35,502 nucleotides of DNA from Malassezia furfur (Eukaryota). Each line of letters starts with the position of its first letter. Position 1 is the stretch's first letter. Below, piece by piece: positions 1 to 35,502 of this stretch. The notes below the pieces were generated by a model that saw only the letters and a list, made by a program, of their open reading frames with translations, did no database searches and was not told where the DNA came from. A program made the translations under genes and the position numbers. The DNA lies in assembly GCA_052055015.1 (NCBI GenBank), contig JBQJIT010000074.1. One strand, written 5' to 3'.

Positions 1-713
1 GGACCAGTCTTGGTCCGCGGCCGCCGCCGGCGCTCGCTCGGCATCCCACGTCGGGCGCTCGGTGCTCGCCGAGGCCCAGGCGCGCTCGCGTGGCGGCGCA
101 GCACCATCCGTCCAGCTGCTTCGAGACGGTGCATCCGTCCACGTCGGCGCCTCGCTGCTGACGGGGGCCGATGCACTGGTCCACGCCGTGCGTGCATCTG
201 CGGGCGGTGCGCAGCTGGGTGCAGCGCCGTCGTCGCTCCATTGCTCGTTGCGCTCCGTGCCGATCTCGTTCGGCGGCGGCGGGGGGGCACGGAAGAAGCC
301 GTCCTTGCGCCGGCTCTCCATTTGATGCTGCAACACCCGCGAGAGGTGCTGCGGGTCTTCGATGCTGCTCAGCGACGACCGGCTCAAAGCGATGCCAATG
401 GGAATAAAGAAAAGCGAGCCTGCGAACCCACTCGCAAATGACAGTGCAAAAAGACGGGTATTGCTCATAGGGCGCCCCGAACGGCGGAGCGCAAACACCA
501 TCGCACTGGCACCGGCCACAAAACCACACTGCGTCAGATGCCTCCTACATACGACTCTCGCGCGCCAGACATTCGTACCGATATGACGCAAAGCTTCCGC
601 TGGAATTAACCATACCACATACCCTCCTTGGGTGTTAGCTTGGCGTCGGGCTGCGCAGCGCCGTTGTTGGACGGCGCCGCACCGGGACTCGGGGCAGCGG
701 GGGCCATCGACAT
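1..713 (-). CDS. Uncharacterised membrane protein, 3' end outside the window; exons 713-623, 599-553, 528-<1
   Basis: ATG at 713. Introns GTATGT..TTAATTCCAG (622-600) and GTATGT..CTGACGCAG (552-529) join an open frame: MSMAPAAP..LTPKEAEALRHIGTNVWRARV-CGFVAGASAMVFAL..LFALSFASGFAGSLFFIPIGIALS. This gives two hydrophobic segments followed by a Trp-spaced low-complexity tail. Confidence 0.7.
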
Positions 714-1523
714 GCTGGGCGTTTGGTGCGCGCGCACGGCCGTTGCTTTCGTAAGCAACAAGCCCGACCGCGCACGCCGGCCGAGGTCGTGGCAGGGCGT
801 GCCGCACGCGGCGGACGGCCGACGGGCGCGGGGCGTCGCGCGCAGCAGGCAGGAGGCGCACGGACAAGGCGACCAGACGTGACGAGGTGTCTGTACCCGC
901 GCCCAATAGAGGTCGCACTTGTCATCGCCACGATCGCCGCGCCACGATGCCATGACAAGGATGCGCGCGAGCCATCTCTCTACGACTTCTACGTAGGGCC
1001 GTACCGGGGAGCTATGGGAACAGCACCCACGGTGGCGCTGAGGTGCCAACCATTCATGATCAAAGTCCGCAGAGCACGGCAAAGCGGGGCGGAGCATCGC
1101 GCCGTGCCGAGCCACGCCGTGGCACCATAGCTACCCCGCCACACGCGGCACTGGCTCGCCAAGACGCATACATGCAGTGCCTTCCACGTGTTGCCTTTGT
1201 CTCGATCCGTCGCTGGTCGCGTCAGCGCGCGGGCGGCCGCGTGGACCGCGCGCGCGCGCGGTGGGACCCTTGCGTGCACGCAAATGATTGGGCGGCTGGC
1301 GCCACGCGGCGTGTCTCTAATCTCCGGCCGACGCGTCGCGACGCGGGTTTAATTGCGCGGCCGGCGCCCTGCAAGGCCGCGCGCGAGGGCCGACCCCTGC
1401 AGCCCGCTGACCCGCGTGTCCGTCGCTCGCGCGCGTGCCTTGCGCGGAGGTTGGAGTTGGCCATCGACGCGCGTTCGTCGTGCCCTTACACCGCCGAGAC
1501 ACGGAGTCGCCCACGCGTCAGAC

Positions 1524-2882
1524 ATGGCCGCTGCCTCCGTCTCCACGCACACACCCGAGGGCGGCACCACGCCGCAGCTTCTCGAGGTACGCTGCCCCGT
1601 CTGACCGCAGCAAGCGCAGCGCCTGCGCGAACGTCTTACGCTCGCAGCCCACCACACGGGACTCACGAGTGCGGGGCAGGCCCCCGACCTCGCCTCCAAG
1701 CATACGCTTGGCAACCCCCTCGTGGAGGCGCATGCCGTAGCGCCGCCCACGCGGTCGCTGCCGCCGCTGCCACGCACGCCCGAGCACAAGCGCAAGGCCC
1801 CCGCGTCGCCCGCATCCTCCGACCTGTACCAGGGCGTTCTCGGGAGCCATGTGGCGCTCGCCTCACCGTCGTCTACTCATGCCGGGTCTATGGCGTCGCC
1901 GCCGTCGCCTGCGCCGCGCGCACGCTCCACGCCGCGCACGCCCCAGTCGCGCGCGAGTGCGGGCGAATGGCTGAACCACGTCGCTTCCTCGCCGCAGCTC
2001 GGCTCGCCGCACCGCCGCGCAACGAGCGACGTACACAACTACCCCACCGCCGAGCAGCTCCAGCGCGAGCGGCGCGCGGCGCAGCGCGTCTCGCCCAAGC
2101 GGCGGCGTATGGACATGCCCGCGCCGTTTGCCTTTCCCACACGCGCGCTGCCGCACTCGCCGCCCCATCTGCGCAGTGGGCGCGTCGCCTCGGCGCTCGC
2201 GCAGGATCTCGGCATACACACCGACGCATCGCCCGGTCGCCTTGCGGGGGCGCGCGTTGTGCCGTCTTCGCGCCACGCGCGCTACGCATCCATGTCGTCG
2301 CTCCCCGACGCACTGCACGATACACACTACGTGCCAGTGCGCAGCTACGACCCGCCGCCGCACGACCCTCGCGACACGCGGGCGTCGCGGCACCAGTACT
2401 CTCACAGCGTCGGCGGCGCGCCCGGCGATGCGCACGCGCCGCTGTCGTACGCGCGGCAGGGCCCCGCGCCGGCACCCACGCACGACGCGGGTACCGCGCG
2501 TCGTGCGGACGCAGCGTGGGCTCCGCCGCCGGCCGCGCGGAAGCACCGCCGCAGCGTGTCGCACAATGTGCTCGATACCCCCGTGCCGGTGTCGCATGAT
2601 CGGCACAGCAGCATCGTCACACCGCCAAGCGAGTCGCCCCTGTTCCCGATGACGCCCAAGTCGCTTGCGCCGTCGTTCCGCTACGGCGACTTGTTGAGTA
2701 CGAGCCCTACGCCGCAGCCGCGGCACGGGCGGCCTCCGCGTGCGGCGCCGAGCAGCGCGCCGCCCAAGGCGCCACGTCACCTGCGCTTCCGCTCCGAAGA
2801 CCTCGGGGCACGCGGCGCCCGCCCGCTGTGGGCGCAGTCGCCGCGCGCACCGCCTGCACCCTGGAAGGACATAGCCATGTAG
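1524..2882 (+). CDS. Whi5/Nrm1-like G1/S transcriptional repressor candidate; exons 1524-1586, 1611-2882
   Basis: Removing a 24-nt intron (GTACGC..CTGACCGCAG, with in-frame TGA) joins MAAASVSTHTPEGGTTPQLLE to QAQRLRERLTLAAHHT, which resembles the Whi5/Nrm1 GTB motif. The rest is disordered with many S/T-P sites (SPKR, SPHR, TPRTP, TPKS). Confidence 0.55.
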
Positions 2883-2913: not shown

Positions 2914-3954
2914 ATGGCGGCTCGGTACGCGCGCGAGACGCGCATCGGCGCGGGGTCGTACGGGTAGGTCTGCACGCGTTGACGCAGCGAGGTGTACCGG
3001 GGGCACGAGCGTGCGACAGGCAAGGTCGTCGCGATCAAGGTCATCGATTTGGAGCTGTCGCACGACGAGCTGATCACGGTACAGCGCGAAATTGCGGTGC
3101 TCAGCCAGGTGCGCAGCCCGTGCATCACGACGTACTACGACAGCTTCCTTGCGGACGCGCAACTGTCCATCGTCATGGAGTACTGCGGCGGGGGCAGCTG
3201 CGCCGACCTGCTCGACGCGGGGCTGCTCCGCGCGCAGCATATCCCCACCATCCTGCGCGAGGTGCTGAATGCGCTCGTGTACCTGCACGGCGAGCACAAG
3301 CTGCACCGCGACATCAAGGCGGCCAACGTGCTGCTCGCCAGCGACGGCGCCGTCAAGCTCGCCGACTTTGGCGTCGCTGGGCAGCTTACCGCCGCGGTCA
3401 AGAAGGACTCGGCCTTCGTCGGGACGCCTTACTGGATGTCGCCCGAGGTGGTGAAGCAGAGCGGGTACGACGCCAAGGCGGACATCTGGAGCCTGGGCAT
3501 CCTTGCCTATGAGCTCGCCGAGGGCGACCCGCCGTACGCCAACTTGCACCCCATGAAAGTGCTGCACCTTATTCCGCGCAACCCCCCACCAGCACTGCCC
3601 CCCAAGCACGACAAGCAGCTCTGCGCCTTTGTGCAGCTATGTGTGCAGCGCGACCCAAAACAGCGCCCAACCGCCGCAGAGCTGCTGCGCCACAAGCTGA
3701 TCCGCAACGCGGCGCCCACTTCCGTCCTGGCGCCGCTCGCGATGCAGCGCAAAAAGCGCGCGCTTGACGAGCCGCGCGGTATCCAGCCGGTGGATGTGGC
3801 GCCAGAAGAGGCGCTGTGGGACTTTGGGACGCGCACGCACCGTGCGCGGCCGGGTGCGGTGCGCGACGGCGGCGGCGATGCGCCGCGCTCGCCGTCGCTC
3901 GTGTCGACGTGGAAGAGCCGCATGGCGACGGTGTTGGGCGGCACACCGCGGTGA
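2914..3954 (+). CDS. STE20/GCK-family Ser/Thr kinase (Don3/Sid1/MST3-like); exons 2914-2963, 2988-3954; alternative in-frame ATG at 2893
   Basis: Splicing the 24-nt intron 2964-2987 restores the glycine loop IGAGSYGEVY. Other motifs: VAIK, HRDIKAAN, DFG, FVGTPYWMSPEV, and the GCK-type PPYANLHPMKVLHLIPRNPPP. Confidence 0.9.
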
Positions 3955-3970: not shown

Positions 3971-5990
3971 CTACACACGCGCACCACACTCCTTGCGCAG
4001 CCAGGCAATCGCGCGTGCATCGCCCTGCTTCTCGAGCAGCGGCAGAAGCTTGGCGTACACCTCGTCGTGGTACGCATTGACCCACGCGCGCTCCTCCTCG
4101 GAGAGCAGCGACGCGTCGATGAGCTTGGTCTGGATCGGGCACATGGTGATGTGCTCGAAGCGCAAGAAGCCCTTGCTCGTGGGCGGCTCGGGCGTGCCGG
4201 ACGGCAGGTAGTGCGGCTGGACACTGGGGTGAGTGCGGCGAGACGTACATGACCAGGTTCTCGATGCGGATGCCCCACTCGCCGTCGAGGTAGTAGCCGG
4301 GCTCGTTGCTGATCACCATGCCCGGCTTGAGGCCCGTCTCGTTGAACGCAATGCGCGTGCCGATGCCCATCGGCGGCTCATGCACGTTCAAAAAGTGGCC
4401 CACGCCGTGGCCCGTGCCGTGGCGGTACTCGAGATGGTCGCGCCAGCCAGGCGCGCGCGCCAGCGCATCGATCACGTAGCCCGTCGTGTTGTACGGGAAA
4501 ATGAGACGGTCAATCGCAATGTTGCCTTGCAGCACCCGCGTAAAGCACCGACGCTGCTCGGCGGTCGGCGTGCCAAAGTGCAGCGTGCGCGTCACATCGG
4601 TGGTGCCAAATGGGAAGTGCGCACCGCTGTCGCACAGGTAGAGCGCGTCGCGGTCAATCGCGGGGCCGCCCTCCTCGGGAGGGGAGTAGTGGATGATGGC
4701 ACCGTTTGGTCCGGTGGACGAGATCGTGGTGAAGCTCAGCCCTTGGAACTCGTCCTGCTGCTCGCGGAATTCCGTGAGCTTGTTCGCGCCCTGTGTCTCG
4801 GTGACGGTCTCGCCGCGCTGCAGCGCCTCCTCGAGCCACGCAAAGTAGGCCACGAGCGCCGCACCATCTCGCAGGTGCGCCTCGCGGAAGCCGTCCTGCT
4901 CCACGACGTTCTTGATGCTCTTGGCATCCACCACAAGGGAGCGGTCCACCATCGCACGCTCTGCGCCCAGTGCCTGGAACACGGCATAAGAGGCGCGCTT
5001 GCCAATCAGCATCTTTTGGCCTGGCTGCAGCTGCGACTCCATCGCGCGCAGGTCGTCATAAAAGGCGGAGTAGGGGCGTACCACCACGGTCGCGCCCAGG
5101 TGCTCGCGCACATCGGTGGTGAGCTGCGCATCGTTCACGTAGAGTACGGTGCGGTCCATGGTCACGATCGCAAACGTGAAAAACACGGGGTTGTATGGCA
5201 CATCCTTGCCGCGCAGGTTAAAGAGCCACGCGACCTCGTCGAGCATGGTGGCGACAAAGCCATACGCGCCCATCTTCTGCAGTTGCTGGCGCAGATCCTG
5301 GATCTTTTTGTCGAACGAGCGACCGGTGATCGACTCGGGCAGCGCGAGGATCGGTTCCTGCGGGCGCTCGGGGCGGTCGTGCCATACCTGCGCGACGAGG
5401 TTTTCGACGAGCGGCACAAACTCCATTTCGCTCGCGCGCAGGTCACTGATCAGCCTCTGCGCCTCCTCAACGCCGATCACCTTGGGGTCGACGCCGATCC
5501 GCGCATGCGCAGGGAGCTGCGCGACAAGCCACTCTTGCCACGTCGGCACCTCGGGCTCGCCCATCTTCATCAGCGTCCACACGCCCGGCTCGAGCTGCTG
5601 CGACGCTTGCAAAAAGTAGCGGCCGTCGGTGAAGAGCAGCGCGTCATCGTGCGTAAGCAGCGCCGTACCGGCGGAGCCGTTGAAGCCCGTGACATAGCCA
5701 CGCAGCAGATCAGACACCGCAGGGTACTCACTCGCGTGCTCGTCCTCGGACGGGACGAGATACGCGTCGAGGTTGTGCTCCTTCATGCGCGCACGCACCC
5801 GCTCGACAATCGCCTTGGTCGGCACCACGCCGTTGTTCACAGCGCCCATCGTGATAGAGGAGTTGGTTCGGAGAGAAGGAAGGAAGGGGGTTCGACTCGA
5901 AACACGAGGCAGAGAAGGACGTGCAATACGCCGTCCCACAGCACAGCGCACAGAGGTGGTCGCGAGGCAACCTAAAAGACGCAAAGGCAT
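3971..5990 (-). CDS. Xaa-Pro aminopeptidase P (M24B, AMPP1/Fra1-like); exons 5990-4249, 4223-3971; second start at 5849
   Basis: Motifs EDEHASEY, GFNGSAG, TDGRYFLQA, DSGAHFPFGTTDVTRT, HGTGHGVGHFLNVHE, NEPGYY, GIRIEN. The 25-nt intron 4248-4224 joins the C-terminal FEHITMCPIQTKLI..WVNAYH segment. Confidence 0.93.
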
Positions 5991-6208
5991 CGACACCCTC
6001 CGCGTGGCTCCACACGCCGATCGAGCCCACCGCTGCGGTGCGCCGAATCGCTGAACGGACCAATGGGGTTGCCTTGTTGAAAAGGCGGAATTTTAGCCTA
6101 TGGGTGGATACGTCGCGCGGAATCAACACCGAGCGAAGGTGGGTAGCAAGCGCGTTGAGTACTGTACATGCAGGTGTTGATCATGAAGAGATGCAGGGGG
6201 CGACGCGC

Positions 6209-7510
6209 TTAGTAGCGGTAGTGGTCGGCCTTGTACGGACCCTCGATCGGAATGTCGAGGTAGTCCGACTGGACCTGGGTGAGCTTGGTGAGCTGCACGT
6301 TGAGCTTGGCGAGGTGCGCCAGCGCGACCTCCTCGTCGAGCTTCTTGGGCAGCATGTAGACCTGGCCACGCTTGTACTGGCCCTCCTTGTCGTTCCACAG
6401 GGCAATCTGCGCCAGCGTCTGGTTGCAGAACGAGGCGCTCATGATGAACGACGGGTGGCCCGTGGCACAGCCAAGGTTCACCAGACGGCCCTCGGCAAGC
6501 AGGATGACATGGCGGCCGTTGGGCAGCGTGTAGCGGTCCACCTGGGGCTTAATGTTGACCACCTCCTTGGCGATCTTCTTCAGGCCCGCGACATCGATCT
6601 CAATGTCAAAGTGGCCGATGTTGCACACAATGGCGTCCTCGCTCATCTGCTCAAAGTGCTTCGTCGTGATAATGTCACGGTTGCCCGTCGTCGTCACAAA
6701 CAGGTTCGCCTGGCTCACGACGTTGTCCATCGTGTCCACCTGGTAGCCAGCCATGGCGGCCTGCAGCGCGTTGATCGGGTCAATCTCGGTGACAATCACG
6801 CGGCAGCCGTAGCCACGCAGCGACTCCGCACAGCCCTTGCCGACGTCACCAAAGCCGGCCACGACGGCAACCTTGCCGCCGAGCATGACGTCCGTCGCAC
6901 GCTTGATACCATCGACGAGCGACTCGCGGCAGCCGTAGTAGTTGTCGAACTTCGACTTGGTCACCGAGTCGTTCACGTTGATCGCGGCAAGCTTGAGCTC
7001 CTGGCGCTTGGCAGCCATGTAGAGGTGGTGCACACCGGTGGTGGTCTCCTCCGAAACACCGTGGATGCCCTCCAGGAGCTGCGGGTATTTCTTGTGGACG
7101 AGCCAGGTGAGGTCACCACCGTCATCCAGGATCATGTTGAGCGGCTCACCATTGGGGAAGGCGTGCAGCGTCTGCTCAATGCACCAGTTGTACTCCTCCT
7201 CGGTCTCGCCCTTCCAGGCGAACACGGGGACGCCGGTAGCCGCAATCGCCGCGGCGGCGTGGTCCTGCGTCGAGAAGATGTTGCACGACGACCACGACAC
7301 CTGCGCACCGAGCGCAATGAGCGTCTCGATCAGCACAGCGGTCTGGATGGTCATGTGCAGGCAGCCAGCAATACGCGCGCCCTTCAGGGGCTGGTCCTTC
7401 TGGTACTTCTCGCGCAGAGCCATCAGACCGGGCATCTCGCCCTCGGCAATTTCAATCTCCTTGCGGCCGAAAGCGGCAAGCGAAATGTCGGCGACCTTGT
7501 AGTTGGACAT
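6209..7510 (-). CDS. SAH1: Adenosylhomocysteinase (S-adenosyl-L-homocysteine hydrolase)
   Basis: Intronless. [69 protein letters not shown]-terminal [10 protein letters not shown]. Confidence 0.98.
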
Positions 7511-7647
7511 GGTGAAAGTTGGGGGGTGGAAGAAAGGGCGGCCAAGGCGCACCGTAGAAGTCTTGCGCCGTGCGCGCCAGCGCAGGGCCACGTGTCGTGC
7601 GCACGTGGTGCCGCAGCCGGCCGGCCGGCGTGCTTCTTCCTGCTTCG

Positions 7648-7914
7648 ATGCCGCCGCAAGGCAGCACGCGCGGCGAGTGCCGCCTAGCAGAGCTCACGCA
7701 GTTCCACTGCCAGCTACTGCATAACCGGATCATGTGCCAACCAGTGGAGCGTATCTTCCGCATGTGTCCGAGGCGCCCGGCCGTGGAAGTGACACACCTC
7801 GTGGAGTACGATGCAAATATGCAGCCGTACCTCGTTGATGCCCTTCCGTACGTGTGCCGAGGCTCATGCAGCGAATATACCCAGCTGGACAAGCACGATA
7901 GCAAGACGCAGTAG
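7648..7914 (+). CDS. Som1-like mitochondrial inner membrane peptidase accessory subunit; probable in-frame intron 7848-7871
   Basis: Small protein with the pattern [32 protein letters not shown], characteristic of Som1. Carries a GTACGT..CTCATGCAG 24-nt intron motif. Confidence 0.7.
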
Positions 7915-8101: not shown

Positions 8102-10393
8102 CTACGTAGGCCGCATAAGGGAAGATACAGGAAGAAGCGTCTCGGGATGTGCTGGTTCGTGGGGCGTCGTTTGCTGTGCAATCGCAGCCAGCGACGGCGT
8201 GTCACCAACCAGGCCACGCAGCTCGTCCATCAACACCTGAACTCGCGCCATCTTAGCATCATTTCCCTCGTGGTCGGGAGTCGCGCCAAGCCACAGTCGA
8301 ATCATGCCGTGGTATGCCTGCATCGTCGTTCGTAGCACGTCGGCGTCCTCAGGATGATGCGCAAGGACATGCGCCAGCGCCAGTCGAAATTCTTCAAACA
8401 AGGACCAGAGCCGCTCACGCACGGCAGGCATGTGCGCCAGACGTGTACGGCTCGCCTCGTAGAGACACGCCGCGTACATATCCAGTCGCGCCGTCGTCAC
8501 GTCCCAATCGGCCTCGACATCGTCCGGCGGCACCGCATACAACGAGCGCGCCAGCGCCAGCGTTGGCTCAAATACACCCGCATGGAAAAAGGCACGCAAT
8601 ACACCAGACGCAAACGAAGGGTGCACGGGCGACTGCGCGGCGCACACGTCGAGGACGACTTGCTGCGCTACTGTCCGCATGTTGCCGGCGAGCAGCGCGC
8701 GTACAAACACTTGCGTGTCATGTAAAGGGAAAATTTGACCAAACGCTGCTGCGTCGTGGTACAGTCGGAGCGCAAACAGCAGCTGCCCGCTGCGTTTGAT
8801 CGCCTGACGGAAGAGCCACAGCAAGCCGCGGGGCGGTGCGTCGCCGGCGCCGAAGAAGGGCAGGTGTGTAGGATTGTACATACGCGCCCTTTCATACAGA
8901 CGCCGGCCCATTGCGTAGTGGCCCTGACTCACACATATGGCCAGTAGCCGATTATGGTGCGGAGGAAGAAGCAGGGGGCCATCGTCCATGCGGTTCAACA
9001 CATGCTCGACAAAGGAGATGAACCGTGCGGACCAATCCGGCGCGTCGTCGACGTATGTTGCGAGCGCTTCACCTAACGCATCAGGTTGTGGTGTCTTTTT
9101 GCCCAGCAGGGTGGCCTCCCATGCGCGGACCAGCTCACCGTACATCTGCTGGTCGGCCTCCAAGTCGGTGTGCTCCCGTAAGGCGTGGAGCGTATCGAGT
9201 GCCAGCACCATGGCTGCCTCATACCCGCCCCGTCGCTCGCGTGCGCGCCATGCCAACGCGCTAATCGCAGCCGCATACACATCGTACGGCTGGGCGTCTG
9301 CAGAGCGAGTTAATACCAACGCCGCGCGAGGGTCACCCAAGCGGCACAGTGCCACGGCCGCTCGCTGCGCCAAGTATTCGGGACGTGTCCGAGCAAGCCC
9401 GTGCAGCAGTGCTGACCACGGCACAGTATAGTCAAACGAAGCCAGCGTCGCCTCTGTTGGTTTGCGACACGCATCAAAGAGGACCTGCGCTCGCTCGGCG
9501 CCGAGTCGCGTCAAGAGCGTCTGCACCAAGGCGCCCCGGATGGGCAATAAACGCGCAAACGCGAGACAAAGACCATGAATGCCTAGCTTTAGCTCTGGAT
9601 CGCGTGGGTCGCTTTTGTCACGAAGACGAAGGCAAGCCTCGACGAGGGCATTGAAAGGCTGTGCAGCACTCGACCGGTCGTCGTCAAGGTCCGAGCGTGA
9701 GGCAAGCGCCTCCACGAGCCGCAGAGGTGGGAGATGGTCAAACTTCGCAAGGCGGAACACGGTGCGTCCGAGCAGCGGCGTGTCAAGCTCCGCCGGCGCG
9801 TACACAACCGCTTCGGACAGGGCCCCGGCTTGCCTTACCCGCTCTTTGTCCCACTCCTCGCCTTCAAAATGTTCCAGTCGCTCGCCGCGTTTAAGCAATA
9901 GGTATAGATACCGCCGATATAGTGATGGCGGTATGGGTGAGGAAACGTGTGCGGCATGGAATGAGAACAGGGCGCACAACCGTTCACAGACACGATCGAG
10001 GCGTGCATAGAGCCCCAGAGGAGGCCGCGGATTTGGCCCTTGTGCGAGAAGCGACATGGCGCCATGCCAAAGGGAGTAGGGTATCGTGGTGCTTTTCGCA
10101 CGGCAGAGGACAAATTGATGCCAACAAGCGTCCTCGTCGTGCCGTGCCAATGCATCAGCCATGTCACGCAAGTCCGGTGGCCATGTGTGGCGGTCACCGG
10201 GCGGGAGATAGGGGTAGGTGTATCGTTCAAAGCTCGCTTGAGCCTGGCATGACCGTGCCAATACCGCAAACGTGCGGTGTACCAGGGAAGCGGCACCGGG
10301 CGCGTGCCAAGGACGCTGCGAAGAAAAAGGACCCGCACGAACATCGCACCACGGACGCGGTGCGACGCCGCAGCGGAGCGCCCTCATGAGCAT
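8102..10393 (-). CDS. Predicted mitochondrial helical-repeat (degenerate PPR-like) protein, about 763 aa
   Basis: Long intronless ORF with an Arg/Ala/Ser-rich N-terminus. Repeated helix pairs such as [47 protein letters not shown] and [13 protein letters not shown]. The product assignment is inference. Confidence 0.5.
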
Positions 10394-10582: not shown

Positions 10583-11197
10583 ATGTCGCACTACTCGGCT
10601 GTCGCCAAGGCACGATCACGGCGCGTGCCATCATCCAGTGGACTGCTGAGTACTCCCAGCTATACTGGAGTGCGCGCACCTGCGCCGCCGCACGCGGAGC
10701 TTAGTGAGGACCAGCGTGCCGAGATCCAAGAAGCGTTCGAGTTGTTCGACACGGACAAGGACGGCGCGATTGACTACCACGAGCTTAAAGTAGCGATGCG
10801 TGCGCTCGGCTTTGATCTCAAGAAGCCTGAGCTGCTCAAGATTCTGCGCGAGAACGACGCGAGTGGGTCGGGGCTGATGGAGTGGAAGGACTTTGAGCGG
10901 ATTCGTACGTGGCGCGCAATTCACACCAGTAACGGAGCGTATCCTCTCGCGAGACCCTCGGGAAGAAATTCGGCGCGCATTTGCGCTCTTTGATGACGAC
11001 GGCACGGGCAAGATCAGCTTGCGCAATCTGAAACGCGTCGCGAAAGAGCTCGGAGAGAACTTGGACGACGAGGAACTGTGCGTACCGACTATGTTAGATA
11101 CTAATGCAGTCAAGCTATGATCGACGAGTTTGACCTGGACCAGGATGGCGAGATTGATGCGAGCGAATTCGAGCAAATCATGATGGACGAACCGTGA
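10583..11197 (+). CDS. CDC31: Centrin (Cdc31); exons 10583-10904, 10930-11077, 11110-11197
   Basis: EF-hand sequence [40 protein letters not shown], then [38 protein letters not shown] and [16 protein letters not shown]. Introns of 25 and 32 nt. Confidence 0.95.
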
Positions 11198-11673: not shown

Positions 11674-13745
11674 CTATGTTTGTTGTTGCTGCGATACCGT
11701 CGCTTGGTTCAGACCAGTAAACATGTCAGAAAAATGGGTAGAGTCCGTCGCGGGGAGCAGGCCGATGGTGGCGTCGTTGCCGGTGACACTCGCTGACACG
11801 GCCATGGAGTCCATCGGCACTGAGAAGGCCACGTCGCTCTTTTTCAACGGTGTACCGGTAGGCGCGTTTGCGGAGTGCGTCAACGCTGCAAAGATGGGCG
11901 TCTGGGGGTGAGAGGCAGGGAGCAGCGAGTGCGACAGGATCGCATCCAGCGTTTTGGGGTCGTAGTCAGGCCGATTAGGTGGCAGCGCCAAAGGTGCCGT
12001 GGGAGGACGCGCGAGGTAATCGCCAGGCAACGGCACCGCCGGGTTGGGAGCGGCACTCACCGCTGAAGCCGGTAGCAGTGGCGCACCTGGCGCGGCCGCA
12101 GGCACCGCGTGCAAGCCCGGCACGGGCGCCTTGTGTACGCCCTGTCGCGCGTCGGCGGTGGCGGCGGCGGCGGCAAGCGCCACCGAGTGTGGTACACCGT
12201 CGACCGTCTGGGGTGCGTAAGTCGGCGCTGCGTCCGCCGACGCACTCTGCGGGAGGCCCGCCAGGACGTTGGCAAGGCGGTCGTCCTGCGAGGACATCTC
12301 CGGCGCGCCTACTTCGTTGGACAGCGCCGGGCGTTTGTGCGCGCGACGGTGCACCCCTGGGCGGGAGCCGCCTCCACTTCCGCGGCTCGGCGGGACCATG
12401 TTGGGATCGCCCGTAGGCTCCACGGTGACGACGGTGCCGTCTTTGGCGCGCTTGCGTTTGTTCGATAGGGAGCGCGCATAGCGCAGCCCGCATGCGTTGC
12501 AAAGCTGGGTCAGTGGCTACGACGTACAGTTTTGTGCCCCGAGGGACCACGCCGCCACTCGGGACTGTTGCTCTTGCCGCAGCTCGAGCAGGACTTGGTC
12601 GGTGCCGTACTCGTGGCCGTCGCTGCCGCCAGTGCTGCGACGTTGTCCTGAGCCGACGGGCTGGCATCCGCCCGAGTCGATCGTGGGTATGGCAACGACG
12701 ACTGCGCCTGCGCAGACTCGACCGGGACTGACGCGTGCGTCTCCGATTTCCACTCGCTTTCGCCTGGGCTGCGCCGATCGTGGCCAGCCGCGTTGTTTCC
12801 TTCCGACAACTTGGAATGTGGCAGGGCCGCTGTGCCCTTGGTTGGCTCGGAACTGGGCCGGTCGCTCGTCACCTGGAAGCAAGCCAGGACGATGGACCCG
12901 TACGGGATGAGCACACTCGAGATGGCACGCACGCGTCCGGACGCCGTGAGTGTATGGGACGCACGGAACCGCTGGGTGCAGCTGGTCGTGTCGCTTGCTC
13001 CTGCTGCGGGGCCCGCGTGGATGCCCTGGACTAGCCGCGCAAAATCTTCTGCGTGGTAGGTATCCGATGCGCGGCTGCCCTGCACCGCCTCGGGAGGAGG
13101 CCAGCTAAGCAGGATCTGGCGCTGGGGCGCGTTGCCGAGCACCTCGAACACATAGTGCAGCGGGCGCGTCAAGTGTTCCTGGGTCGCGGCGTACAACTGG
13201 CGCCAGAGCTGCTGCGACTGTGCCGCGTCAAATGCGTGCGCCGAGTTACCACAATGCGTAGAAGAGAGCACGTCGGGCGACGGGATCGTGTGGAAAAAGC
13301 ACAGGGCGAGTCGGTCGCCGACCATGTTCACTACCACGTCCGTCGGTGTATACTCGGAGGCGGCATCCGCAGCGCGTGGCGCGCTGCTGAGCATGCACCG
13401 GATGTGGGCGGTGCTTGCATATCGGCACCGCGTCACGCTGCCAAACAGCGTGCGGCTCTGCACGATGCGCGCCAAATCGCTCCGTGCGTGCGCACGTTCG
13501 TCGGCGTGCACAAAGTCGGTGAACTGGCGCCCGAGAATCGCATGTGCCATGGCGCCAAGCTCGTGCTGGACGTCGGGGTCCACATACACAAACTTGAGCT
13601 GGCCCTGCGTCGCCTCCGATACCTCGTGCTCGGCCGGAGTCGAGAGCAGCGCCCAGAAGCAGCGGGACACGTCACCTTCGCTCGACGGCTCGACGCGGCT
13701 GCTCTGCGCCAAGACCGACGGCTCGTCGGTCCTCTCAGCCTTCAT
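11674..13745 (-). CDS. GATA zinc-finger transcription factor with N-terminal PAS-like domain; exons 13745-12528, 12504-11674
   Basis: The 23-nt intron 12527-12505 completes CSSCGKSNSPEWRRGPSGHKT|LCNACGLRYAR (CX2CX18CX2C). PAS-like segment: FVYVDP..ILGRQFTDFVHADER..ARSDL. Confidence 0.88.
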
Positions 13746-13921: not shown

Positions 13922-14566
13922 ATGCGCATCCAGATCCACGCCGGGCAGGGCCCACGACCGGCCGACGACTGCCCCCTGCCGCCACCGCCGCTCGCGCGTC
14001 TGAGTCCGAACGGCGAGCTGGTCCTGGTCGAGCTGCAGGGCTCCCTGGAAATGGACGGCGTCGACCCGGAAGGCGGGCAGACGATTGGCGTGTTGCGCTT
14101 CCCAGAAGGGCGCGAGGTACGTGCCATGCCGCTCACGCAGGACAAGCCCATACTCCAAATCTCCCACCATTTGCTCGAGGGAAAAATTGTCTCGCTACCC
14201 CGGCCCATTGCAGTGCTCGAAAAACGCGTCACGCCGGCGGACCAGGTCGAGAGCGACATCGAGTCCGACGACGATGCAGGCGTGTCGCCACCCGCGAGCC
14301 CGGCACCTGCGTCACCCTCGCAGCTCGCCAAGCGCGCGCGCATGGAGCCGCCGGAGACGCCGACTAAGCCGAGGGAGGTGCTCAGCAGCAGCCCGATGCC
14401 GGAACGCGCCCCTCGTTACTCTGATGGGCACCTCGACTTTTCGTCCCCGCAGCCGGGGCGCGGCAAAAAGCCCTCAACCGTCACATCCTACCACGTCGTC
14501 ACCCTAGTGCGGCAAAAGGTGCTCTTCGCCAAGCGCCCAGAGCCCATTGTCCAACTAAATTCATAA
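13922..14566 (+). CDS. CTF8: Chromosome transmission fidelity protein Ctf8 (Ctf18-RFC subunit); probable in-frame intron 14117-14140
   Basis: LVLVELQGSLE, IGVLRF, PILQISHHLLEGKIVSLPRPIAVLEK, and C-terminal YHVVTLVRQKVLFAKRPEPIV. Confidence 0.88.
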   Translation: MRIQIHAGQGPRPADDCPLPPPPLARLSPNGELVLVELQGSLEMDGVDPEGGQTIGVLRFPEGREVRAMPLTQDKPILQISHHLLEGKIVSLPRPIAVLEKRVTPADQVESDIESDDDAGVSPPASPAPASPSQLAKRARMEPPETPTKPREVLSSSPMPERAPRYSDGHLDFSSPQPGRGKKPSTVTSYHVVTLVRQKVLFAKRPEPIVQLNS

Positions 14567-23237: not shown

Positions 23238-23580
23238 ATGCCACCACCTGGCCATCCGCTCCGCGCGCGCGCCATCGGACTGTACAAAGAAGTGCGTGCA
23301 GGTGCAGTAACGCTCACGCCAGCTGCATCGCTTGGGAAGGGAGTACCCTGATCCAAACTACCAGTTCATCCCCAAGCTGCGCGCTATGTTCCGGAAGAAT
23401 GCGCACCTCACAGACAACGCCGAGATCGAGAGCAAGCTGGCGCTCGGCGAGTTCGTGCGAAAGGGTACGTGCCACACTCACACAGAAACGGAAAGTAGGT
23501 GTTTGATCACTCACCCAGCTCTGTATTCGTTGAAAAAGTACCGGACGCTACGTAGGCGCTACATCGAGGGCGACTCTTAG
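23238..23580 (+). CDS. LYR-motif mitochondrial protein (LYRM5/ETFRF1-like); exons 23238-23291, 23323-23464, 23486-23494, 23519-23580
   Basis: LRARAIGLYKE|LHRLGREYP..KLRAMFRKN..GEFVRKETETLYSLKKYRTLRRRY after removing introns of 31, 21 and 24 nt. Confidence 0.85.
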
Positions 23581-24478
23581 AGCTTCGGTACAAACTGCAG
23601 CATCTGACCGCCGTCGATCGGCAGTGCCGCTCCAGTCATGTGCGAGCCGGCACGACTCGTCAGGAACAAGACTGCGCCTGCAATGTCCTCGGGCGTGCCA
23701 AGTCGGCCCGTGGGCTGCACACCCTCGAGCAGGTCCTTGCCCTGGCCCAAGCTCCAAGCGGTCATCCGGCTGGGGAAGACACCAGGGCACAGTGCGTTGA
23801 CGAGCACGTACCGGTCGGCCAGCTCGTGCGCGAGCATGCGTGTGAGATGCACCGACGCCGCCTTTGATGGCTGGTAGCTGTATGTCCCATTACCAGGCTC
23901 TGACAGTGGCCCAGATGCAGCTGGCGCGTACGCAGCGACCGAAGCAACGTTGATGACGCTCGCATGGTGCGTGTTGCTCTTGTCCTTCTCGAGCAGGGGT
24001 AGCAGCGCGACAGTCAAGTAGAACTGGCTCTTGACGTTTAGGTCAAACACCTTGTCCCACCCCTTTTGTTCCGGGAAATCGTCCAACTTACCGCCCCATG
24101 TAAGACCCGAGTTGTTGATCAGGATGTCGAGCTTCTCCTCCTTCTGTTTAATTTCGTTGGCCAGAGCATCGCAACCGGCCTTAGAGCCGACGTCCGCCTG
24201 AATCGGGATGCAGAACGTTCCTGGCTCAAACGGAGACTTGGGTGCAGTCTCATTAAGCTGCTTCGCGACGCGCTGGAGCTCGTCAAACTTGCGCGATGCA
24301 ATATAGACACGGCAGCCGTTCTGGATCAGGGCAGCGGCCATCACTGCATCAGTGCGTTGCACCTACTTTTTCCCAGGCCTGAACCGCCGCCAGTGATTAC
24401 GGCAACCTTACCGCTGACATCGAACAGCGGGCCGACCTTAAGGTCAGGCATTACTTCGGGGGCGGCATCCTTCGGCAT
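23577..24478 (-). CDS. Short-chain dehydrogenase/reductase (RhlG-like), probably peroxisomal; exons 24478-24367, 24343-23577
   Basis: LFDVSGKVAVITGGGSGLGKMMA, LDILINNSG, catalytic YQPSK, PIDGG. Ends in -PKL, a PTS1-like tripeptide. One 23-nt intron. Confidence 0.9.
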
Positions 24479-24554: not shown

Positions 24555-25227
24555 ATGAGCGGAGTGCCCGACTACTACCGCGTGCGTAGTGCGTGCTAAC
24601 CCAGATCCTTGGCGTTGTACCCACCGCTTCGGCGGAAGAGATCAAAAAGGCGTATCAGCGTGAATCTCTGCGCTCGCATCCGGACCGATTCCCGAAAGCA
24701 TCGCCCAGCGAGAAGCGGGAGTATACGCGCCGTTTCCAAAGCGTCGCCGACGCATGTAAGTGTTGTGGCTGACCCCAGATTACATCCTCTCTGACCCGGA
24801 GCGTCGACGCGAGTACGATGCAGTGCGCCCGGCGGCGACGACGGGTTCGTCGACCGACCCAGACGATGACGTCAAGGAAAGCACCAATTTCTTCCGCTCC
24901 TTCTTTGGTGCAAACTCGCAGCATGGCGAGTATGCACAGCCACAACCGGAGCAACAGTTTGCGGAGACTTGGGAAGATCTGCTGCGCCCCGAAATGGAAC
25001 GTGTCGGGCATTGGTGGCAGTATGCCGGAGCCGCCGCAGGGAGCGTGCTAGGCTACATCATTGGCAATGTCCCAGGCGCCCTCGGTGGCGGTCTCTTGGG
25101 TGGCAAAGTGGGATCGATCCGCGATGCCAAGGGGCGTGCTGTTAGCGAAGTGTTTCTGCATCTACGAAGCGATCAGCGTGCTCAGATCCTGCGGGAGCTG
25201 GCGATGAAAGTGCTTGGGTCGCTCTAA
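24555..25227 (+). CDS. DnaJ-domain protein with C-terminal glycine-zipper membrane segment; exons 24555-24581, 24605-24755, 24779-25227
   Basis: PDYYR|ILGVVPTASAEEIKKAYQRESLRSHPDR..FQSVADAYYILSDPERRREYD (HPD motif). Two 23-nt introns. Confidence 0.9.
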
Positions 25228-26222
25228 TCACGCTTGCTGCTCCAGCCCTGGCAGGGGAATGCTGAAAAATTTAGGCCAAACGAGGTACTGTTGAATAGCC
25301 ACATGCAGACGTGAAACCAAGATCTGTTCAATCTTGGGTGTGTCTTGCAGCTGGTTTTTGGAACCAATCAGGCTAGAGACGTGCGCTTCGAGGACAAAGT
25401 CAGGGTAGAGACACACACGGACCTCCTGCTTGGCAGGGTTGTGTTCCTCGGTGCCGACCTCGATGCCGAGTGTGCCCGCTATCCGCTCAATCCGGAAACA
25501 AAGTGCAAGCGCGAGCGAGCCGAAACGCAGTTGAGGAAAGTTGAACAAGAGCTTGGTGTCCAGTCCCAACGTGATGCGGTCCACATAGTCAAAGTCCACC
25601 TCGAGTCGCACACCCTGGAGATGATCAGACGGACTGAAGCGGGCGTTGGAAAAGGCCGGGTATGCGAATCCAAAGTCGATGTCAGTGACAGTGATGGTGT
25701 CCTGCAATGAGCATATAGGTGACGTACCAAGACGTTCATCGTGCGTCCTTCGACGGCACCGTTCAAGAGGCGCTCAACAAAGCGCTTCGCTGCTGCTTTC
25801 TCTTCTGTAGCTAAAGAAGGTAGCGGTAGGTCCGTGTCGCGGTCGGGCATACCGCGCGAGGTATGCAAGATGCTCTCGCGATAGCCGTGCATCGTCTGTG
25901 CGACCATGAGGTTGAGCCAGTCGAGTGACTCAGGCGCGTGGTGGTCAATATCGTATTTTGTGCGCTGCAGAATGCCTTGGAGACGAGCCTGAAAGTTGCG
26001 CTCGTACGACTCGTAGTGATCGACCGGTCGTTTGCTACGTGCGTCGAGCGACTTTTGCAGGATACGCGTTCGCTCCATGAGATCTGAACGCTGTTTCGCG
26101 AGAGATTCGGGAACATTGGTCATAAACATGCTCCAGAACACATATGCGAGGATCAGGCCGAGCACAATCTGCCCGGCGACGAACCCCTGCGCAAAGGTGA
26201 GGCGCGTCTCGGGGCCGTTCAT
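25228..26222 (-). CDS. MMM1: ERMES subunit Mmm1-like SMP-domain protein; exons 26222-25728, 25701-25228
   Basis: N-terminal TM LTFAQGFVAGQIVL, HAPESLDWLNLMVAQ, DTITVTDIDFG..PAFSNAR, DTKLLFNFP, SSLIGSKNQLQDTPKIEQIL, VWPK. One 26-nt intron. Confidence 0.88.
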
Positions 26223-30161: not shown

Positions 30162-30849
30162 CTACTTGGCCGCCTTGTCGTCGATTACAATGTTTTTCTC
30201 TCCGACGCCGCCTTCGGACTCGGGTGGCATCTGTTCGAACGGCTTCGCGCGCTGCAGCAGCAGATTCTTCACCTCGTCGACCACATCGCCCTGAATGTGT
30301 ATTTCATCCACCCCGGGGTGCTGGACGCTCTGGGTAACCGACGCACCCGTCGCAAATCGCGAGCTCAGCCTGCGTCAGTGAACATCACTTACCCCTTAGC
30401 AATCACTTTCAGCTGCGGCAGCGGCGGAGAAAAGAGGTGCAAACCATGAATACAGGTGATGACCTTGCGCTTGGTACGCGCGACACGCGACAGCACAATC
30501 TTGGATGCCTGCGTCGGTCAGTCTCCCTTGCACGTACCGCCAGCTGAGCGCGCTCCTTTTCGGCTTTGGCCTGTGCCTTGCGCTCACGTTTCGCACTCTC
30601 GCGTTCGAGCGACTCGGCCTGCTCGGTCGTGAGAGACTTGAGCTTGTCCGTGAGCGCTGCCTCCGAATACAGCTGCGCATACAACTCTGGATTCTTGGCC
30701 TCCAAATTCGCCTTGCATTTGGTCAGCGACGAGCCGTATTCACAGTATTCGTAGGGGAACGTGCAAATCTCACAATAGTGCACATCGCGCGCCGGCACCC
30801 CCGCAGGCGCTTCGACTGCGGGTGCTGCGTCCACCGTGTCCGCGCTCAT
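30162..30849 (-). CDS. TMA22: Translation machinery-associated protein Tma22/DENR; exons 30849-30538, 30508-30393, 30369-30162
   Basis: VHYCEICTFPYEYCEYG, SUI1 domain IVLSRVARTKRKVITCIHGL..LSSRFATGASV..DEIHIQGDV. Introns of 29 and 23 nt. Confidence 0.92.
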
Positions 30850-30879: not shown

Positions 30880-30880
30880 A

Positions 30881-32111
30881 CTATGGGGCCGCAAGGCGTT
30901 CGAGCTGATCGATCGTTGTGCGGAAGCGCGCGATGTTGAAGTCCTGTACTGTCAGCCGGCGTAGTCAACGTACCAGAATGCCTTGGTTGTAGGCGTAGAT
31001 ACTTGTGCGCACTGTGGCAAAGAGCGCGAGATGGCTGCGTCAGAGTATGCACGTACCTGTTCAGCTGCCAAAAGGCCACCGACGTGTCCGACCCAAGGCG
31101 CACGACGCTCGCCGACCATGTACGCATTGGCTTTGCCGTATCGGCGGTGGAAGCCATGTAGAGATCGGAAAATTCGGTGAGAAATTTCGTGTACTGGAAC
31201 ATCACGTCAAACAGGGGCAAATCGAACGGCGACGTATCACAGCCCACAAACGTGCGACTGGGTACGTCAAAGATGTACGCCTTCTCCAAAGAGCATGAAG
31301 AGCATAGTAGGTTGCATGCCTGTTCCACGGCATCGTGCAGACTGATTCGCTCTTCTGGCGGCTTGTCCTGTTCATCCTCCTGTCCAGATTCAGGTTCCTC
31401 GGGCGTAGCCTCCATCTTCCGCTCGTCCTGCATCAGCCGCTGCTGAATGCGCGAGAAGGCCACAAACACGCTCGACTCAAACACAGAGGTCAGATGGAAC
31501 CGCAACTTAACCTCGGCTTCCAGCCGGAACGGTTCAGTCGAAGAGGGGTCTTGAAACTCGTGCGAGGAATCAATCAGTTCTTCGTGCACGCGTTGCTCAA
31601 TGTCGCGCTGGGTGTCGTACTTGTAGTCGTCGCTCAGTCCATCGACCTTGTTGATGAACACATGAAAATGGATGTCTGGATTGCTGCGGTACCCCAATAA
31701 TATGACTTGGTTGAGCTTCGATAGCGCATCAAAGTAGTCGTCCTGTGCATCGACCACGAAGATGATTGCATCCGCTTCTGCCCAGGGGATGTCCAATCCA
31801 GAATCGCCTGTGGCTGATGTCGGACCCGCGCCGAACGTGTTGGGCGCAAGATCCTGAAGCGCACTTCCTGGCACATCCCAAATCTCAAGACGCTGGAATG
31901 TCTTCACCTGGTGCTTTTGTATCCGCGTTGTCGGCGCCAGGAAAAGGGTATCATTGGGCTGGAAGGATTGGTATACGACTTTGCAGAGACTGGATTTTCC
32001 CGCCCGGCGCGGTCCCAGCAGAAGGATCTTGTGGGCCGTATTGGGTTTGGAGGATGGCGCGGCCCCCCTCGAAGCTTCGCCGGCCCCCTGACGCTGGCTA
32101 AGCGCTGCCAT
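30881..32111 (-). CDS. GTR2: Rag GTPase Gtr2 (RagC/D); exons 32111-31057, 31034-30974, 30943-30881
   Basis: KILLLGPRRAGKSS..PNDTLFL..IWDVPG, IFVVDAQDDY, VFINKVDGLSDDYKYD, FHLTSVF, LEKAYIFD. Introns of 22 and 30 nt give the C-terminus GILDFNIARF. Confidence 0.92.
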
Positions 32112-32752: not shown

Positions 32753-33498
32753 ATGTCGGCGCGAAAGAAAGTCTTGCTGAAGGTGCGTTTCCCGTGTATC
32801 GCAGGACAGCATACTAACACAACCCTTTGCAGGTCATTGTACGTATTATCCGCTAACTCCAAGATTCTAGGTGACTCAGGGTATGTCCATCTATGTACTC
32901 ACGCAGTGTCGGCAAGACATCGTTGATGAATCAATGTGCGTGGTAAATTGCTCACACAGACGTCAACAAGCGTTTCTCTGCAGCATACAAGGCGACGATC
33001 GGTGCCGACTTCCTTACGCGCGAGGTTATGGTGGATGGCCGCTTGGTTACGATGCAGCTGTGGGATACGGCGGGCCAGGAGCGTTTCCAGTCGCTGGGTG
33101 TTGCGTTCTACCGAGGCGCAGACTGCTGTGTGCTTGTGTACGATGTGAATAACCCGAAGTCGTTCGAGGCGCTCGACAGCTGGCGCGACGAGTTCTTGAT
33201 CCAGGCGAGTCCGCATGACCCTGACAACTTCCCGTTCGTGGTGCTGGGCAACAAGATCGATATGGAAGAGAGCAAGCGCGTGGTGTCGCAGAAGCGTGCG
33301 ATGACATGGTGTCAAAGCAAGGGCAACATTCCCTACTTTGAGACGTCTGCAAAGGAGGCCATCAACGTCGAGCAGGCGTTCCAGACGATCGCCAAGAACG
33401 CCTTGCAACAGGAGGCGGAGGCGGATCTCTACGCAGACTACCCTGACCCCATCAGGATTGACTCGGCAAACCCGAGATCCTCAGGGTGCAACTGTTAG
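32753..33498 (+). CDS. YPT7: Rab7 GTPase; exons 32753-32782, 32833-32838, 32864-32880, 32907-32935, 32960-33498
   Basis: Spliced N-terminus [45 protein letters not shown]. Also [31 protein letters not shown] and C-terminal CNC. Confidence 0.96.
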
Positions 33499-33511
33499 AT
33501 GTAGAACGCGA

Positions 33512-34693: not shown

Positions 34694-34784
34694 GAGCGAG
34701 CGCAAGCGGAGGAAGCAGGGCGTCCTTCGCGGTGCAAATCACGTGGATCTTTCTCCCGAGTTGGCGACACTCCACGCGCGGCCG

Positions 34785-35502
34785 ATGAGCGAGGCAACCT
34801 TGGAGCGGCTCGGCGCGGCGCAGAAGCTGATCGCCAAGTGGTGCCAGCCGGGCGCGCTGGCGCTGCCGGACATCAAGGCACGGCTGCGTACGTTGCAGTG
34901 TTTTTTTGCTGACGCAGCTCCGCGCGATGCGCCGTACAAAGAGCACACGCAGGCGGACGACCCATGGGCGTCCTTTAGCGTGCTGCGGCGCCTGCCGATC
35001 CCGAGTACCGTGTTTGAGACGATCACAAGCCGCGCACCCGTGGCGACACTGTCGCTCTTCCCTGCGATCGGGCGCGCGTGCATCACGGTCGAGAACCGCG
35101 TGTATTTGTGGGACTATGCGAACGGGCAGACCGCGTTTGAGTTCCACGAGCTGCCGGACGACCAGGTGGTGTTGGCCGCGGGTCTCGTGGCTGCGAAACC
35201 CGGCGTGTTCATCCCCGAGATTCAGCATGTCCTCGTGTTGTCCACCGGTGCGAACGCCGTCGAGGGCCGGCGCGTGTCGATCCTCGGTGTGTCGCTGACC
35301 GCCGAGGGCGGCGTCAAGCTGTACGAGACCGCGATGAGCGCCAACACCAATGGTGTCGTGATGCGCGACGTGCAGGGCACCGATGCCGGGCGTGTGTTCA
35401 TGGTCGGTAGCGACTCGTGCGTGTACGAGCTGGTGTACCAGGCGACCGAGGGGTGGTTCAGCTCGCGGTGCTACCTGTACAACGTGACGCTGCCGCGCCT
35501 GT
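34785..35502 (+). CDS. Nucleoporin Nup170/Nup157 (Nup155 family), N-terminal part; probable intron 34888-34917
   Basis: LSLFPAIGRACITVENRVYLWDY..AKPGVFIPEIQHVLVLST..GTDAGRVFMVG..VYELVYQATEGWF match the Nup155/170 beta-propeller pattern. The frame runs off the window end. Confidence 0.88.
   Translation, partial: MSEATLERLGAAQKLIAKWCQPGALALPDIKARLRTLQCFFADAAPRDAPYKEHTQADDPWASFSVLRRLPIPSTVFETITSRAPVATLSLFPAIGRACITVENRVYLWDYANGQTAFEFHELPDDQVVLAAGLVAAKPGVFIPEIQHVLVLSTGANAVEGRRVSILGVSLTAEGGVKLYETAMSANTNGVVMRDVQGTDAGRVFMVGSDSCVYELVYQATEGWFSSRCYLYNVTLPRL

Follow-up and report, generated by a model that had tools for sequence, protein, structure and literature searches.

Ultra-short introns with a compact splice-signal layout throughout a 35.5 kb window of Malassezia furfur DNA

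Genes along the whole of a 35.5 kb stretch of Malassezia furfur DNA (contig JBQJIT010000074.1, referred to here as the window) are interrupted by ultra-short introns, an observation that we confirm here. At least 34 of these tiny units are distributed over 19 of the 29 genes, with one more that is probable (in Ctf8), and we consider it very likely that they are ordinary U2-type GT-AG spliceosomal introns. Their lengths are 21 nt (three introns), 22 nt (four), 23 nt (eight), 24 nt (six), 25 nt (four), 26 nt (three), 29 nt, 30 nt (two), 31 nt, 32 nt and 50 nt, with a median of 24 nt and a mean of 25.3 nt (n = 34), and all except one (33/34) are within 21-32 nt. The introns appear to have shrunk nearly to the minimum able to hold three splice signals. 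Very short introns are already documented for Malassezia and their existence is no discovery in itself; what the window contributes is a clear picture of how the introns are built, along with some extreme micro-exons and concrete cases in which annotation has been damaged.

The window is densely filled with fungal genes and has a GC content of 54-70%. A Pfam scan of 150 stop-to-stop open reading frames (ORFs) identified about 20 families, including kinase, M24 peptidase, S-adenosylhomocysteine (SAH) hydrolase, GAL1, Rab, Gtr1, DENR, MMM1 and Nup133, with several domains truncated at the end of an ORF or divided between frames. The best named homologs of Rab7 and GAL1 are in M. psittaci (97% identity) and M. 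brasiliensis (82% identity), exon 2 of the LYR-motif gene has 96-100% identity to M. furfur, and the window is evidently nuclear DNA of a Malassezia-lineage basidiomycete yeast. Gene models were curated by hand with three-frame views and without the intron list behind an earlier note on this DNA, of which only the outer limits and one example had coordinates. All 29 curated models are open from ATG to stop once the introns are removed. The earlier note placed ultra-short introns window-wide from 529 to 34917, and the outermost curated introns (529-552 and 34888-34917) coincide with those limits; its example, the 21-nt intron at 15695-15715 in GAL1, was recovered as GTACGT...CTAAC...TAG between the LIGE and HVD codons. 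Intron density is 1.17 per gene (34 introns, 29 genes), and the first third of the coding sequence holds 18 of the 34. Window scans for tRNA genes and Rfam families gave no matches at threshold.

The introns share a common layout in which a GTACGT-like donor is followed by a spacer of 5-11 nt and a fused CTNAC-N-CAG branch/acceptor module. All 34 begin with GT and end with AG. At the donor, G and T at the first two positions are invariant, as is the G at +5 (34/34), +3 is A in 28 and G in six, +4 is C in 23, and +6 is T in 32; the donors conform to an extended GTRNGT consensus, with exactly GTACGT in 16/34, and there is little consensus on the exon side. A YTNAY branch core is present in every intron (CTGAC in 13, CTCAC in nine, CTAAC in four, and others in eight), and the distance from the putative branch A to the 3' end is 5 nt in 23 introns, 6 nt in seven, and 5-9 nt in 33/34. 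The acceptor is CAG in 31/34, the spacer between the donor and branch hexamers is 5-11 nt in 30/34, and the predicted branch A is at intron position 16-22 in 30/34. The 21-nt introns consist of a 6 nt donor, a 5 nt spacer and a 10 nt branch-acceptor module. The introns are 55% GC, compared with 62% for coding sequence. No polypyrimidine tract is present between the branch site and the acceptor in the 34 introns examined, because only 3-4 nt separate the branch site from the AG; such a tract is not obligatory in fungal introns, so its absence is no bar to membership of the U2 type.

The pattern is far in excess of chance. With an intron pattern fixed in advance (GTRNGY, YTVAY and AG, in a total of no more than 35 nt) and both strands scanned, there are 44 matches in the window, whereas 200 shuffles that preserve dinucleotides average 12.7 (sd 3.9) and never exceed 27. 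Forty of these are gene-sense, four are antisense, and none is intergenic, and 32 of the 34 curated introns match the pattern exactly. Roughly ten matches are not introns, a number that agrees with the shuffle expectation and means that the motif alone is not proof of an intron. A codon-usage dynamic programme was trained on Pfam-validated ORFs and left free to choose among all GT-AG introns of 16-150 nt, without weighting by length. In the real sequence about 31 of its 40 introns measured 21-33 nt, whereas none of the 20 introns that it placed in the reversed sequence was below 35 nt. Earlier and looser runs of the gene model were discarded, as they joined neighbouring genes through long false introns.

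The reading frame requires most of the introns, as the earlier note had also held for many of them: 28/34 are frame-forced, either because their length is not a multiple of three or because they contain an in-frame stop codon. Eleven lengths are divisible by three, and six of these introns lack an in-frame stop; 11/34 gives no sign that multiples of three are avoided among these introns, although the sample is small. Homolog alignment supports 13 junctions, and a further 13 are supported by continuity of a Pfam or Protein Data Bank (PDB) match across the exon boundary (each exon being scanned separately as an unaltered window reference), so that 26/34 are backed by one or the other. Five introns are supported by frame only (600-622, 1587-1610, 21258-21280, 30944-30973 and 31035-31056) and three by motif only (529-552, 7848-7871 and 34888-34917). 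Profile positions run on from one exon to the next in EF-hand_7 (41 to 43), GATA (20 to 22), SUI1 (29 to 38) and SLD5_C (20 to 29), and downstream exons begin at their own residue 1 at profile positions 5 (DnaJ), 14 (Pkinase), 16 (adh_short), 10 (LYR) and 62 (MMM1). The introns, and the probable one in Ctf8, are as follows.

529-552 (-): 24-nt intron in G01, a gene for a membrane-like protein; GTATGT...CTGAC GCAG; a multiple of 3 and stop-free; motif only.
600-622 (-): 23-nt intron in G01; frame-forced, with a stop 14 nt in if kept; weak TTAAT branch site.
1587-1610 (+): 24-nt intron in G02; in-frame stop (the TGA in CTGAC); joins a 21-codon exon 1 to an ORF with GC3 of 0.83.
2964-2987 (+): 24-nt intron in a CDK-like kinase gene; in-frame stop if kept; exon 2 residue 1 is Pkinase position 14, and the Gly-loop GAGSYG|EV is rebuilt.
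4224-4248 (-): 25-nt intron in the M24 aminopeptidase gene; the Peptidase_M24 match reaches position 204/208 where exon 1 stops, with Peptidase_M24_C next in another frame; CTCAC branch site.
7848-7871 (+): 24-nt intron in Som1; GTACGT...CTCAT GCAG; a multiple of 3 and stop-free; motif only.
10905-10929 (+): 25-nt intron in a centrin-like EF-hand gene; frame-forced; exon 1 ends at EF-hand_7 position 64/67 and exon 2 opens the next EF-hand pair.
11078-11109 (+): 32-nt intron in the centrin-like gene; the EF-hand_7 match covers 1-41 in exon 2, resumes as 43-67 in exon 3, and has the split codon at position 42.
12505-12527 (-): 23-nt intron inside a GATA zinc finger; exon 1 carries the GATA profile as far as position 20, and exon 2 takes it up at 22 with its residue 1.
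14117-14140 (+): probable 24-nt intron in Ctf8, outside the 34; perfect GTACGT...CTCAC GCAG from the pattern scan; a multiple of 3 and stop-free.
14681-14705 (-): 25-nt intron in Sld5 (GINS); gapless against full-length homologs; SLD5_C is split into 1-20 and 29-56 across neighbouring exons.
14779-14800 (-): 22-nt intron in Sld5; frame-forced; gapless against homologs.
14923-14945 (-): 23-nt intron in Sld5; frame-forced; gapless against homologs.
15029-15049 (-): 21-nt intron in Sld5; in frame and stop-free; 14/16 homologs lack the 7 residues that it would contribute.
15695-15715 (+): 21-nt intron in GAL1; in-frame stop if kept; spliced model gapless against 12/14 galactokinases.
15740-15761 (+): 22-nt intron in GAL1, after a 24-nt exon; homolog alignment, with 2/14 public proteins lacking exactly the 8 micro-exon residues.
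21258-21280 (+): 23-nt intron in the phosphopantothenoylcysteine synthetase (PPCS) gene; frame-forced; a 35-nt exon is next.
21316-21337 (+): 22-nt intron in PPCS; exon 3 residue 1 is residue 54 of the human PPCS chain 7edz_D, motif VRFLDNFS; CTTAT branch site.
22913-22938 (-): 26-nt intron in the first C2H2 zinc finger; frame-forced; the Zap1_zf1 match (positions 2-23 of 27) stops where exon 1 does.
23292-23322 (+): 31-nt intron in the LYR-motif protein gene; exon 2 residue 1 is Complex1_LYR position 10; gapless against homologs.
23465-23485 (+): 21-nt intron in the LYR gene, before the 9-nt exon 23486-23494; homolog alignment.
23495-23518 (+): 24-nt intron in the LYR gene, after the 9-nt exon; homolog alignment.
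24344-24366 (-): 23-nt intron in a short-chain dehydrogenase gene; frame-forced; exon 1 ends TGGGSGLGK and exon 2 residue 1 is adh_short position 16.
24582-24604 (+): 23-nt intron in a J-domain protein gene; frame-forced; exon 2 residue 1 is DnaJ position 5.
24756-24778 (+): 23-nt intron in the J-domain protein gene; the DnaJ match has reached position 49 where exon 2 stops, and the conserved YxxLSDPxxRxxYD begins the exon after it.
25702-25727 (-): 26-nt intron in MMM1; frame-forced; exon 2 residue 1 is MMM1 profile position 62 and 5yk6_A residue 74.
30370-30392 (-): 23-nt intron in DENR, inside SUI1; SUI1 3-29 in exon 2 and 38-74 from exon 3 residue 1; in-frame stop if kept.
30509-30537 (-): 29-nt intron in DENR; frame-forced; the SUI1 match starts at exon 2 residue 2.
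30944-30973 (-): 30-nt intron in Gtr1/RagA; in-frame stop 6 nt in if kept.
31035-31056 (-): 22-nt intron in Gtr1/RagA; frame-forced only.
32783-32832 (+): 50-nt intron in Rab7/Ypt7; spliced N-terminus as in other fungi, collinear with the uninterrupted L001 coding sequence.
32839-32863 (+): 25-nt intron in Rab7, after the 6-nt exon 32833-32838; required for the P-loop; AAG acceptor.
32881-32906 (+): 26-nt intron in Rab7, after a 17-nt exon; fungal alignment and L001; CTCAC branch site.
32936-32959 (+): 24-nt intron in Rab7, after a 29-nt exon; in-frame stop if kept; fungal alignment and L001.
34888-34917 (+): 30-nt intron in Nup133; GTACGT, a T-run, and CTGAC GCAG; a multiple of 3 and stop-free; motif only.

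Several of these introns enclose micro-exons, with an intron of 21-50 nt on either side of each.

32833-32838 (+): 6-nt exon of Rab7.
23486-23494 (+): 9-nt exon of the LYR gene.
32864-32880 (+): 17-nt exon of Rab7.
15716-15739 (+): 24-nt exon of GAL1.
32907-32935 (+): 29-nt exon of Rab7.
21281-21315 (+): 35-nt exon of PPCS.

Alignment with homologs supports the micro-exons of Rab7, GAL1 and the LYR gene as coding sequence. Removal of 50, 25, 26 and 24 nt from Rab7, with the 6-, 17- and 29-nt exons retained, yields the universal N-terminus with its P-loop, which is intact in 7/11 of the aligned sequences listed, and the joined exons are collinear with an uninterrupted homologous coding sequence (92%) on the metagenome contig L001. 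A metagenome scan for genomic DNA of a close relative returned 80 loci, with L001 the closest, and none of them was a Malassezia genomic locus in which intron and exon divergence could be compared. The spliced GAL1 model is gapless against 12/14 galactokinases, and the micro-exon residues are conserved in these, including those of non-Malassezia fungi. In the LYR gene only the model with a 21 nt intron, a 9-nt exon and a 24 nt intron yields RKETETLYSLKKYR; it places ETET before LYSLKKYR, as in 8/14 aligned orthologs, these being the RNA-seq- and proteomics-curated M. sympodialis protein and seven others. Full-length homologs of Sld5 align without gaps across all four junctions (21, 23, 22 and 25 nt).

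The earlier note predicted that gene finders would mis-handle introns of this size, and several public Rab7, GAL1 and LYR proteins of Malassezia are wrong exactly at these positions. In alignment, the P-loop of the public M. psittaci Rab7 is corrupted. The GAL1 proteins of M. yamatoensis and M. vespertilionis lack exactly the eight residues of the 24-nt exon, and five LYR proteins (two from M. furfur and one each from M. vespertilionis, M. yamatoensis and M. sp. CBS 17886) are wrong at the 9-nt exon and have a scrambled or truncated C-terminus. The proteins that are wrong at tiny introns or micro-exons are P0003, P0126, P0129, P0243, P0254, P0253, P0270 and P0251; others are predicted proteins that read through introns, namely P0241 in the LYR alignment and P0303, P0312 and P0319 in the Sld5 alignment. 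We interpret the deviant public proteins as probable annotation errors and not species differences, because the missing residues are conserved in other fungi. Annotation of Malassezia with a default minimum intron size, or without RNA evidence, would yield truncated and frameshifted proteins and the loss of conserved residues, and such damage can be seen at three genes in published proteomes from six or more named Malassezia taxa. We also note that P0312 and P0319, which are from more distant organisms, have 16 and 26 extra residues precisely where the window's Sld5 gene has its junctions 1 and 2; these inserts look like read-through introns at conserved positions.

A number of observations weigh against the interpretation of every such unit as an intron. 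The earlier note listed 36 introns, and its counts for each length agree with ours except at 24 nt, where it had eight and we find six; two of its introns were not found, one of which may be the Ctf8 unit at 14117-14140. The scan pattern also matches real coding sequence (sites in the SAH hydrolase, EF-hand and GAL1 genes) as well as the four antisense sites, and a good-looking candidate in MMM1 (25386-25418) proved to be coding, as it aligns to conserved positions of the Mmm1 structure 5yk6. A single LYR intron of 54 nt leaves an open frame, yet homologs demand 21 nt, a 9-nt exon and 24 nt; that this first model was wrong shows that curation without homologs can err. Finally, the three motif-only introns and the Ctf8 candidate could be coding, because they are in frame and stop-free, and the Pfam exon scans and PDB search gave no discriminating match for Ctf8. 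That some of these four (529-552, 7848-7871, 14117-14140 and 34888-34917) are coding sequence with a chance splice motif is an alternative that we consider unlikely; in its favour are the approximately 13 matches per window that the shuffles give by chance and several matches within conserved domains that are demonstrably false. Nonetheless, all four have the narrow layout of the verified introns (a strong donor, a branch A with 5 nt to the end of the intron, CAG, and a length of 24-30 nt), which is much stricter than the scan pattern, and three other units that are in frame and stop-free (the 21 nt intron of Sld5 and the 21 and 24 nt introns of the LYR gene) proved through homologs to be introns.

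It seems very improbable that the introns are real but that the true splice sites are further apart, with a 67-nt GAL1 intron or a 54-nt LYR intron swallowing the micro-exon. The GAL1 proteins of M. yamatoensis and M. vespertilionis without the eight micro-exon residues, the M. sp. CBS 17886 LYR protein without the three residues, and the open frame left by the 54-nt LYR intron would all fit such wider sites, but the micro-exon residues are conserved in 12/14 galactokinases, non-Malassezia fungi included, and are present in 8/14 LYR orthologs including the RNA-seq-curated M. sympodialis protein, and the Rab7 P-loop is impossible without the 6- and 17-nt exons. Least probable of all, to the point of being negligible, is that the units are not introns and reflect assembly errors, pseudogene decay, programmed frameshifts, or non-spliceosomal excision like that of ciliate internal eliminated sequences. 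Errors or decay would not produce GT...CTNAC...CAG in 34/34 units, all on the sense strand, nor restrict 33/34 of the lengths to 21-32 nt; the signals are canonical for the U2 type, and the genus has RNA-seq-verified introns of similar size (PMC5389616, from the parts available).

The interpretation as ordinary U2-type introns leads to a simple proposal for how they are processed. Canonical major-spliceosome signals make ordinary U2-type splicing by intron definition the simplest reading, and we infer from the sequence both the splicing of the window introns and the order of their removal. The donor would be paired by U1 and then by U6, CTNAC would be paired by U2, and the first AG past the branch point would serve as the acceptor. 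With the predicted branch A at position 16-22, branching would give a lariat loop of approximately 16-22 nt, in keeping with the loop of about 16 nt proposed in the earlier note; the 'unusually compact U1/U2/U6 assembly' that it drew from this is one possible reading. The introns around the 6-, 9- and 17-nt exons would probably be removed successively and not simultaneously, because two spliceosomes would not fit at the same time on either side of an exon of 6 or 9 nt.

More tentatively, the intron architecture may oblige Malassezia to use a non-standard early splicing pathway, a possibility that we consider doubtful on balance. The 5-11 nt between donor and branch site and the 3 nt between branch site and AG raise the possibility that the U1 snRNP and the branch-site/U2 machinery are unable to share one intron simultaneously, and polypyrimidine-tract and 3'-site factors (of the U2AF/Mud2 and Slu7/Prp18 types) may be dispensable, altered or lost. 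In yeast the second-step factors Slu7 and Prp18 are dispensable when the distance from branch site to acceptor is very short, which suggests a concrete prediction for Malassezia. If there were such a non-standard pathway, strictly ordered removal around the 6-9 nt exons would be forced, and a culturable, transformable yeast would be the most tractable model for a minimal spliceosomal intron. The introns are near the physical minimum and yet have strong consensus signals, and how U1 and U2 share 16 nt is a clear question. Transformation methods for Malassezia exist (PMC7426719, PMC5654937; this and the following literature statements refer to the available parts of the cited papers).

Comparable lengths are found in several unrelated settings. 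The nucleomorph introns of Bigelowiella natans are 18-21 nt, a comparable minimum length, although they belong to a relict endosymbiont nucleus and not to a free-living culturable yeast. Ciliate introns are AT-rich with weak branch signals and a depletion of multiples of three (which are avoided in Paramecium), whereas the window introns are GC-richer, have a strong yeast-like CTNAC, and include 11/34 with lengths that are multiples of three. The ciliates Paramecium and Nyctotherus (~25 bp) nevertheless share the length class, which is a genome-wide property (PMC5014332). Microsporidia, Dicyemida and Myxozoa are independent lineages that also have introns below 30 bp; Myxozoan introns have a median of 22 bp, with U2 and U2AF retained and only weak A-runs as branch sites, and splicing is inefficient in Microsporidia (PMC13644364). 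All three are parasites with reduced genomes, whereas Malassezia retains strong consensus signals. That paper, from 2026, treats introns below 30 bp as exceptional and names ciliates, Microsporidia and Dicyemida as the lineages that have them, with no mention of Malassezia in its available sections (PMC13644364).

The earlier note's statement that Malassezia is known for short introns is borne out by published values (PMC5389616, PMC6473144, PMC9241646). In M. sympodialis ATCC 42132 there are 5350 introns in 4493 genes with a mean length of 30 bp, 99% of them supported by RNA-seq (PMC5389616, Table 2), and intron ranges were set from 10 bp for annotation (PMC5389616). M. restricta KCTC 27527 has a mean intron length of 37.2 nt and a median of 30.0 nt (PMC9241646, Table 1), introns in this species were predicted with min_intron_len = 15 (PMC6473144), and a review mentions 'very short introns' in Malassezia (PMC7426719). 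The window shares lineage and size class with M. sympodialis, has a similar density (1.17 introns per gene compared with 1.19; PMC5389616), and encodes the same LYR micro-exon product as the M. sympodialis ortholog. It differs from M. sympodialis and M. restricta in representing another species with somewhat shorter introns (mean 25.3, median 24, n = 34). The available sections of PMC5389616, PMC9241646 and PMC6473144 give no account of the donor-spacer-branch-acceptor architecture or of exons of 6-9 nt, and a survey of fungal introns that includes M. sympodialis discusses, in its available sections, only the long extremes (PMC8476143). In the open-access literature we found no paper on the splice-signal architecture or the spliceosome of Malassezia, and the Malassezia lineage is not mentioned in the accessible parts of the open-access literature on ultra-short introns.

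Several other candidates were considered and rejected. A 127-nt model intron in PPCS was replaced by the 22-nt intron, and an alternative 25-nt acceptor in Gtr1 would fuse Gtr1 to DENR, so that the 30-nt form was adopted. Coding sequence accounts for 17004-17034 in GAL1 (within the GHMP_kinases_C match), 6599-6628 (within the NAD-binding domain of the SAH hydrolase), and 10800-10822 and 10863-10882 (within the EF-hand). In the unit at 19895-19930 the branch motif is 16 nt from the end and the sequence reads through as plausible coding sequence, and 34863-34891 (-) lies upstream of the EF-Ts start codon. The match at 4229-4256 (+) is the reverse strand of the true M24 intron at 4224-4248 (-); the region 4224-4256 has palindrome-like GT...AC and GT...AG signals that can mislead strand assignment. 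Two matches at 9053-9084 and 9241-9270 (+) are antisense to the gene G07, and the corresponding plus-strand exons score 0.9, -15.5 and -18.6; the minus-strand frame of G07 has the top codon score in six of nine windows of up to 300 nt, all six covering 8105-9904. G07 itself (8102-10057, -) encodes 651 residues, apparently of helical-repeat type, without a Pfam match and with a modest codon-usage score.

Two further intron-like units are candidates, one of 21 nt at 22622-22642 (-) in the low-complexity tail of the C2H2 gene, and one of 27 nt at 22098-22124 (+) at the 3' end of PPCS. Long antisense open frames are present opposite the M24 peptidase and SAH hydrolase genes, at 4233-5972 (+; 580 codons) and 5858-7684 (+; 609 codons); shadow ORFs of this kind arise from GC-rich codon usage and can mislead gene callers that rely on ORFs. 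The genes are very tightly packed at the convergent LYR and dehydrogenase coding sequences, which share 4 nt at their stop codons (23577-23580), and the start codons of the divergent EF-Ts (34693, -) and Nup133 (34785, +) genes are approximately 90 nt apart.

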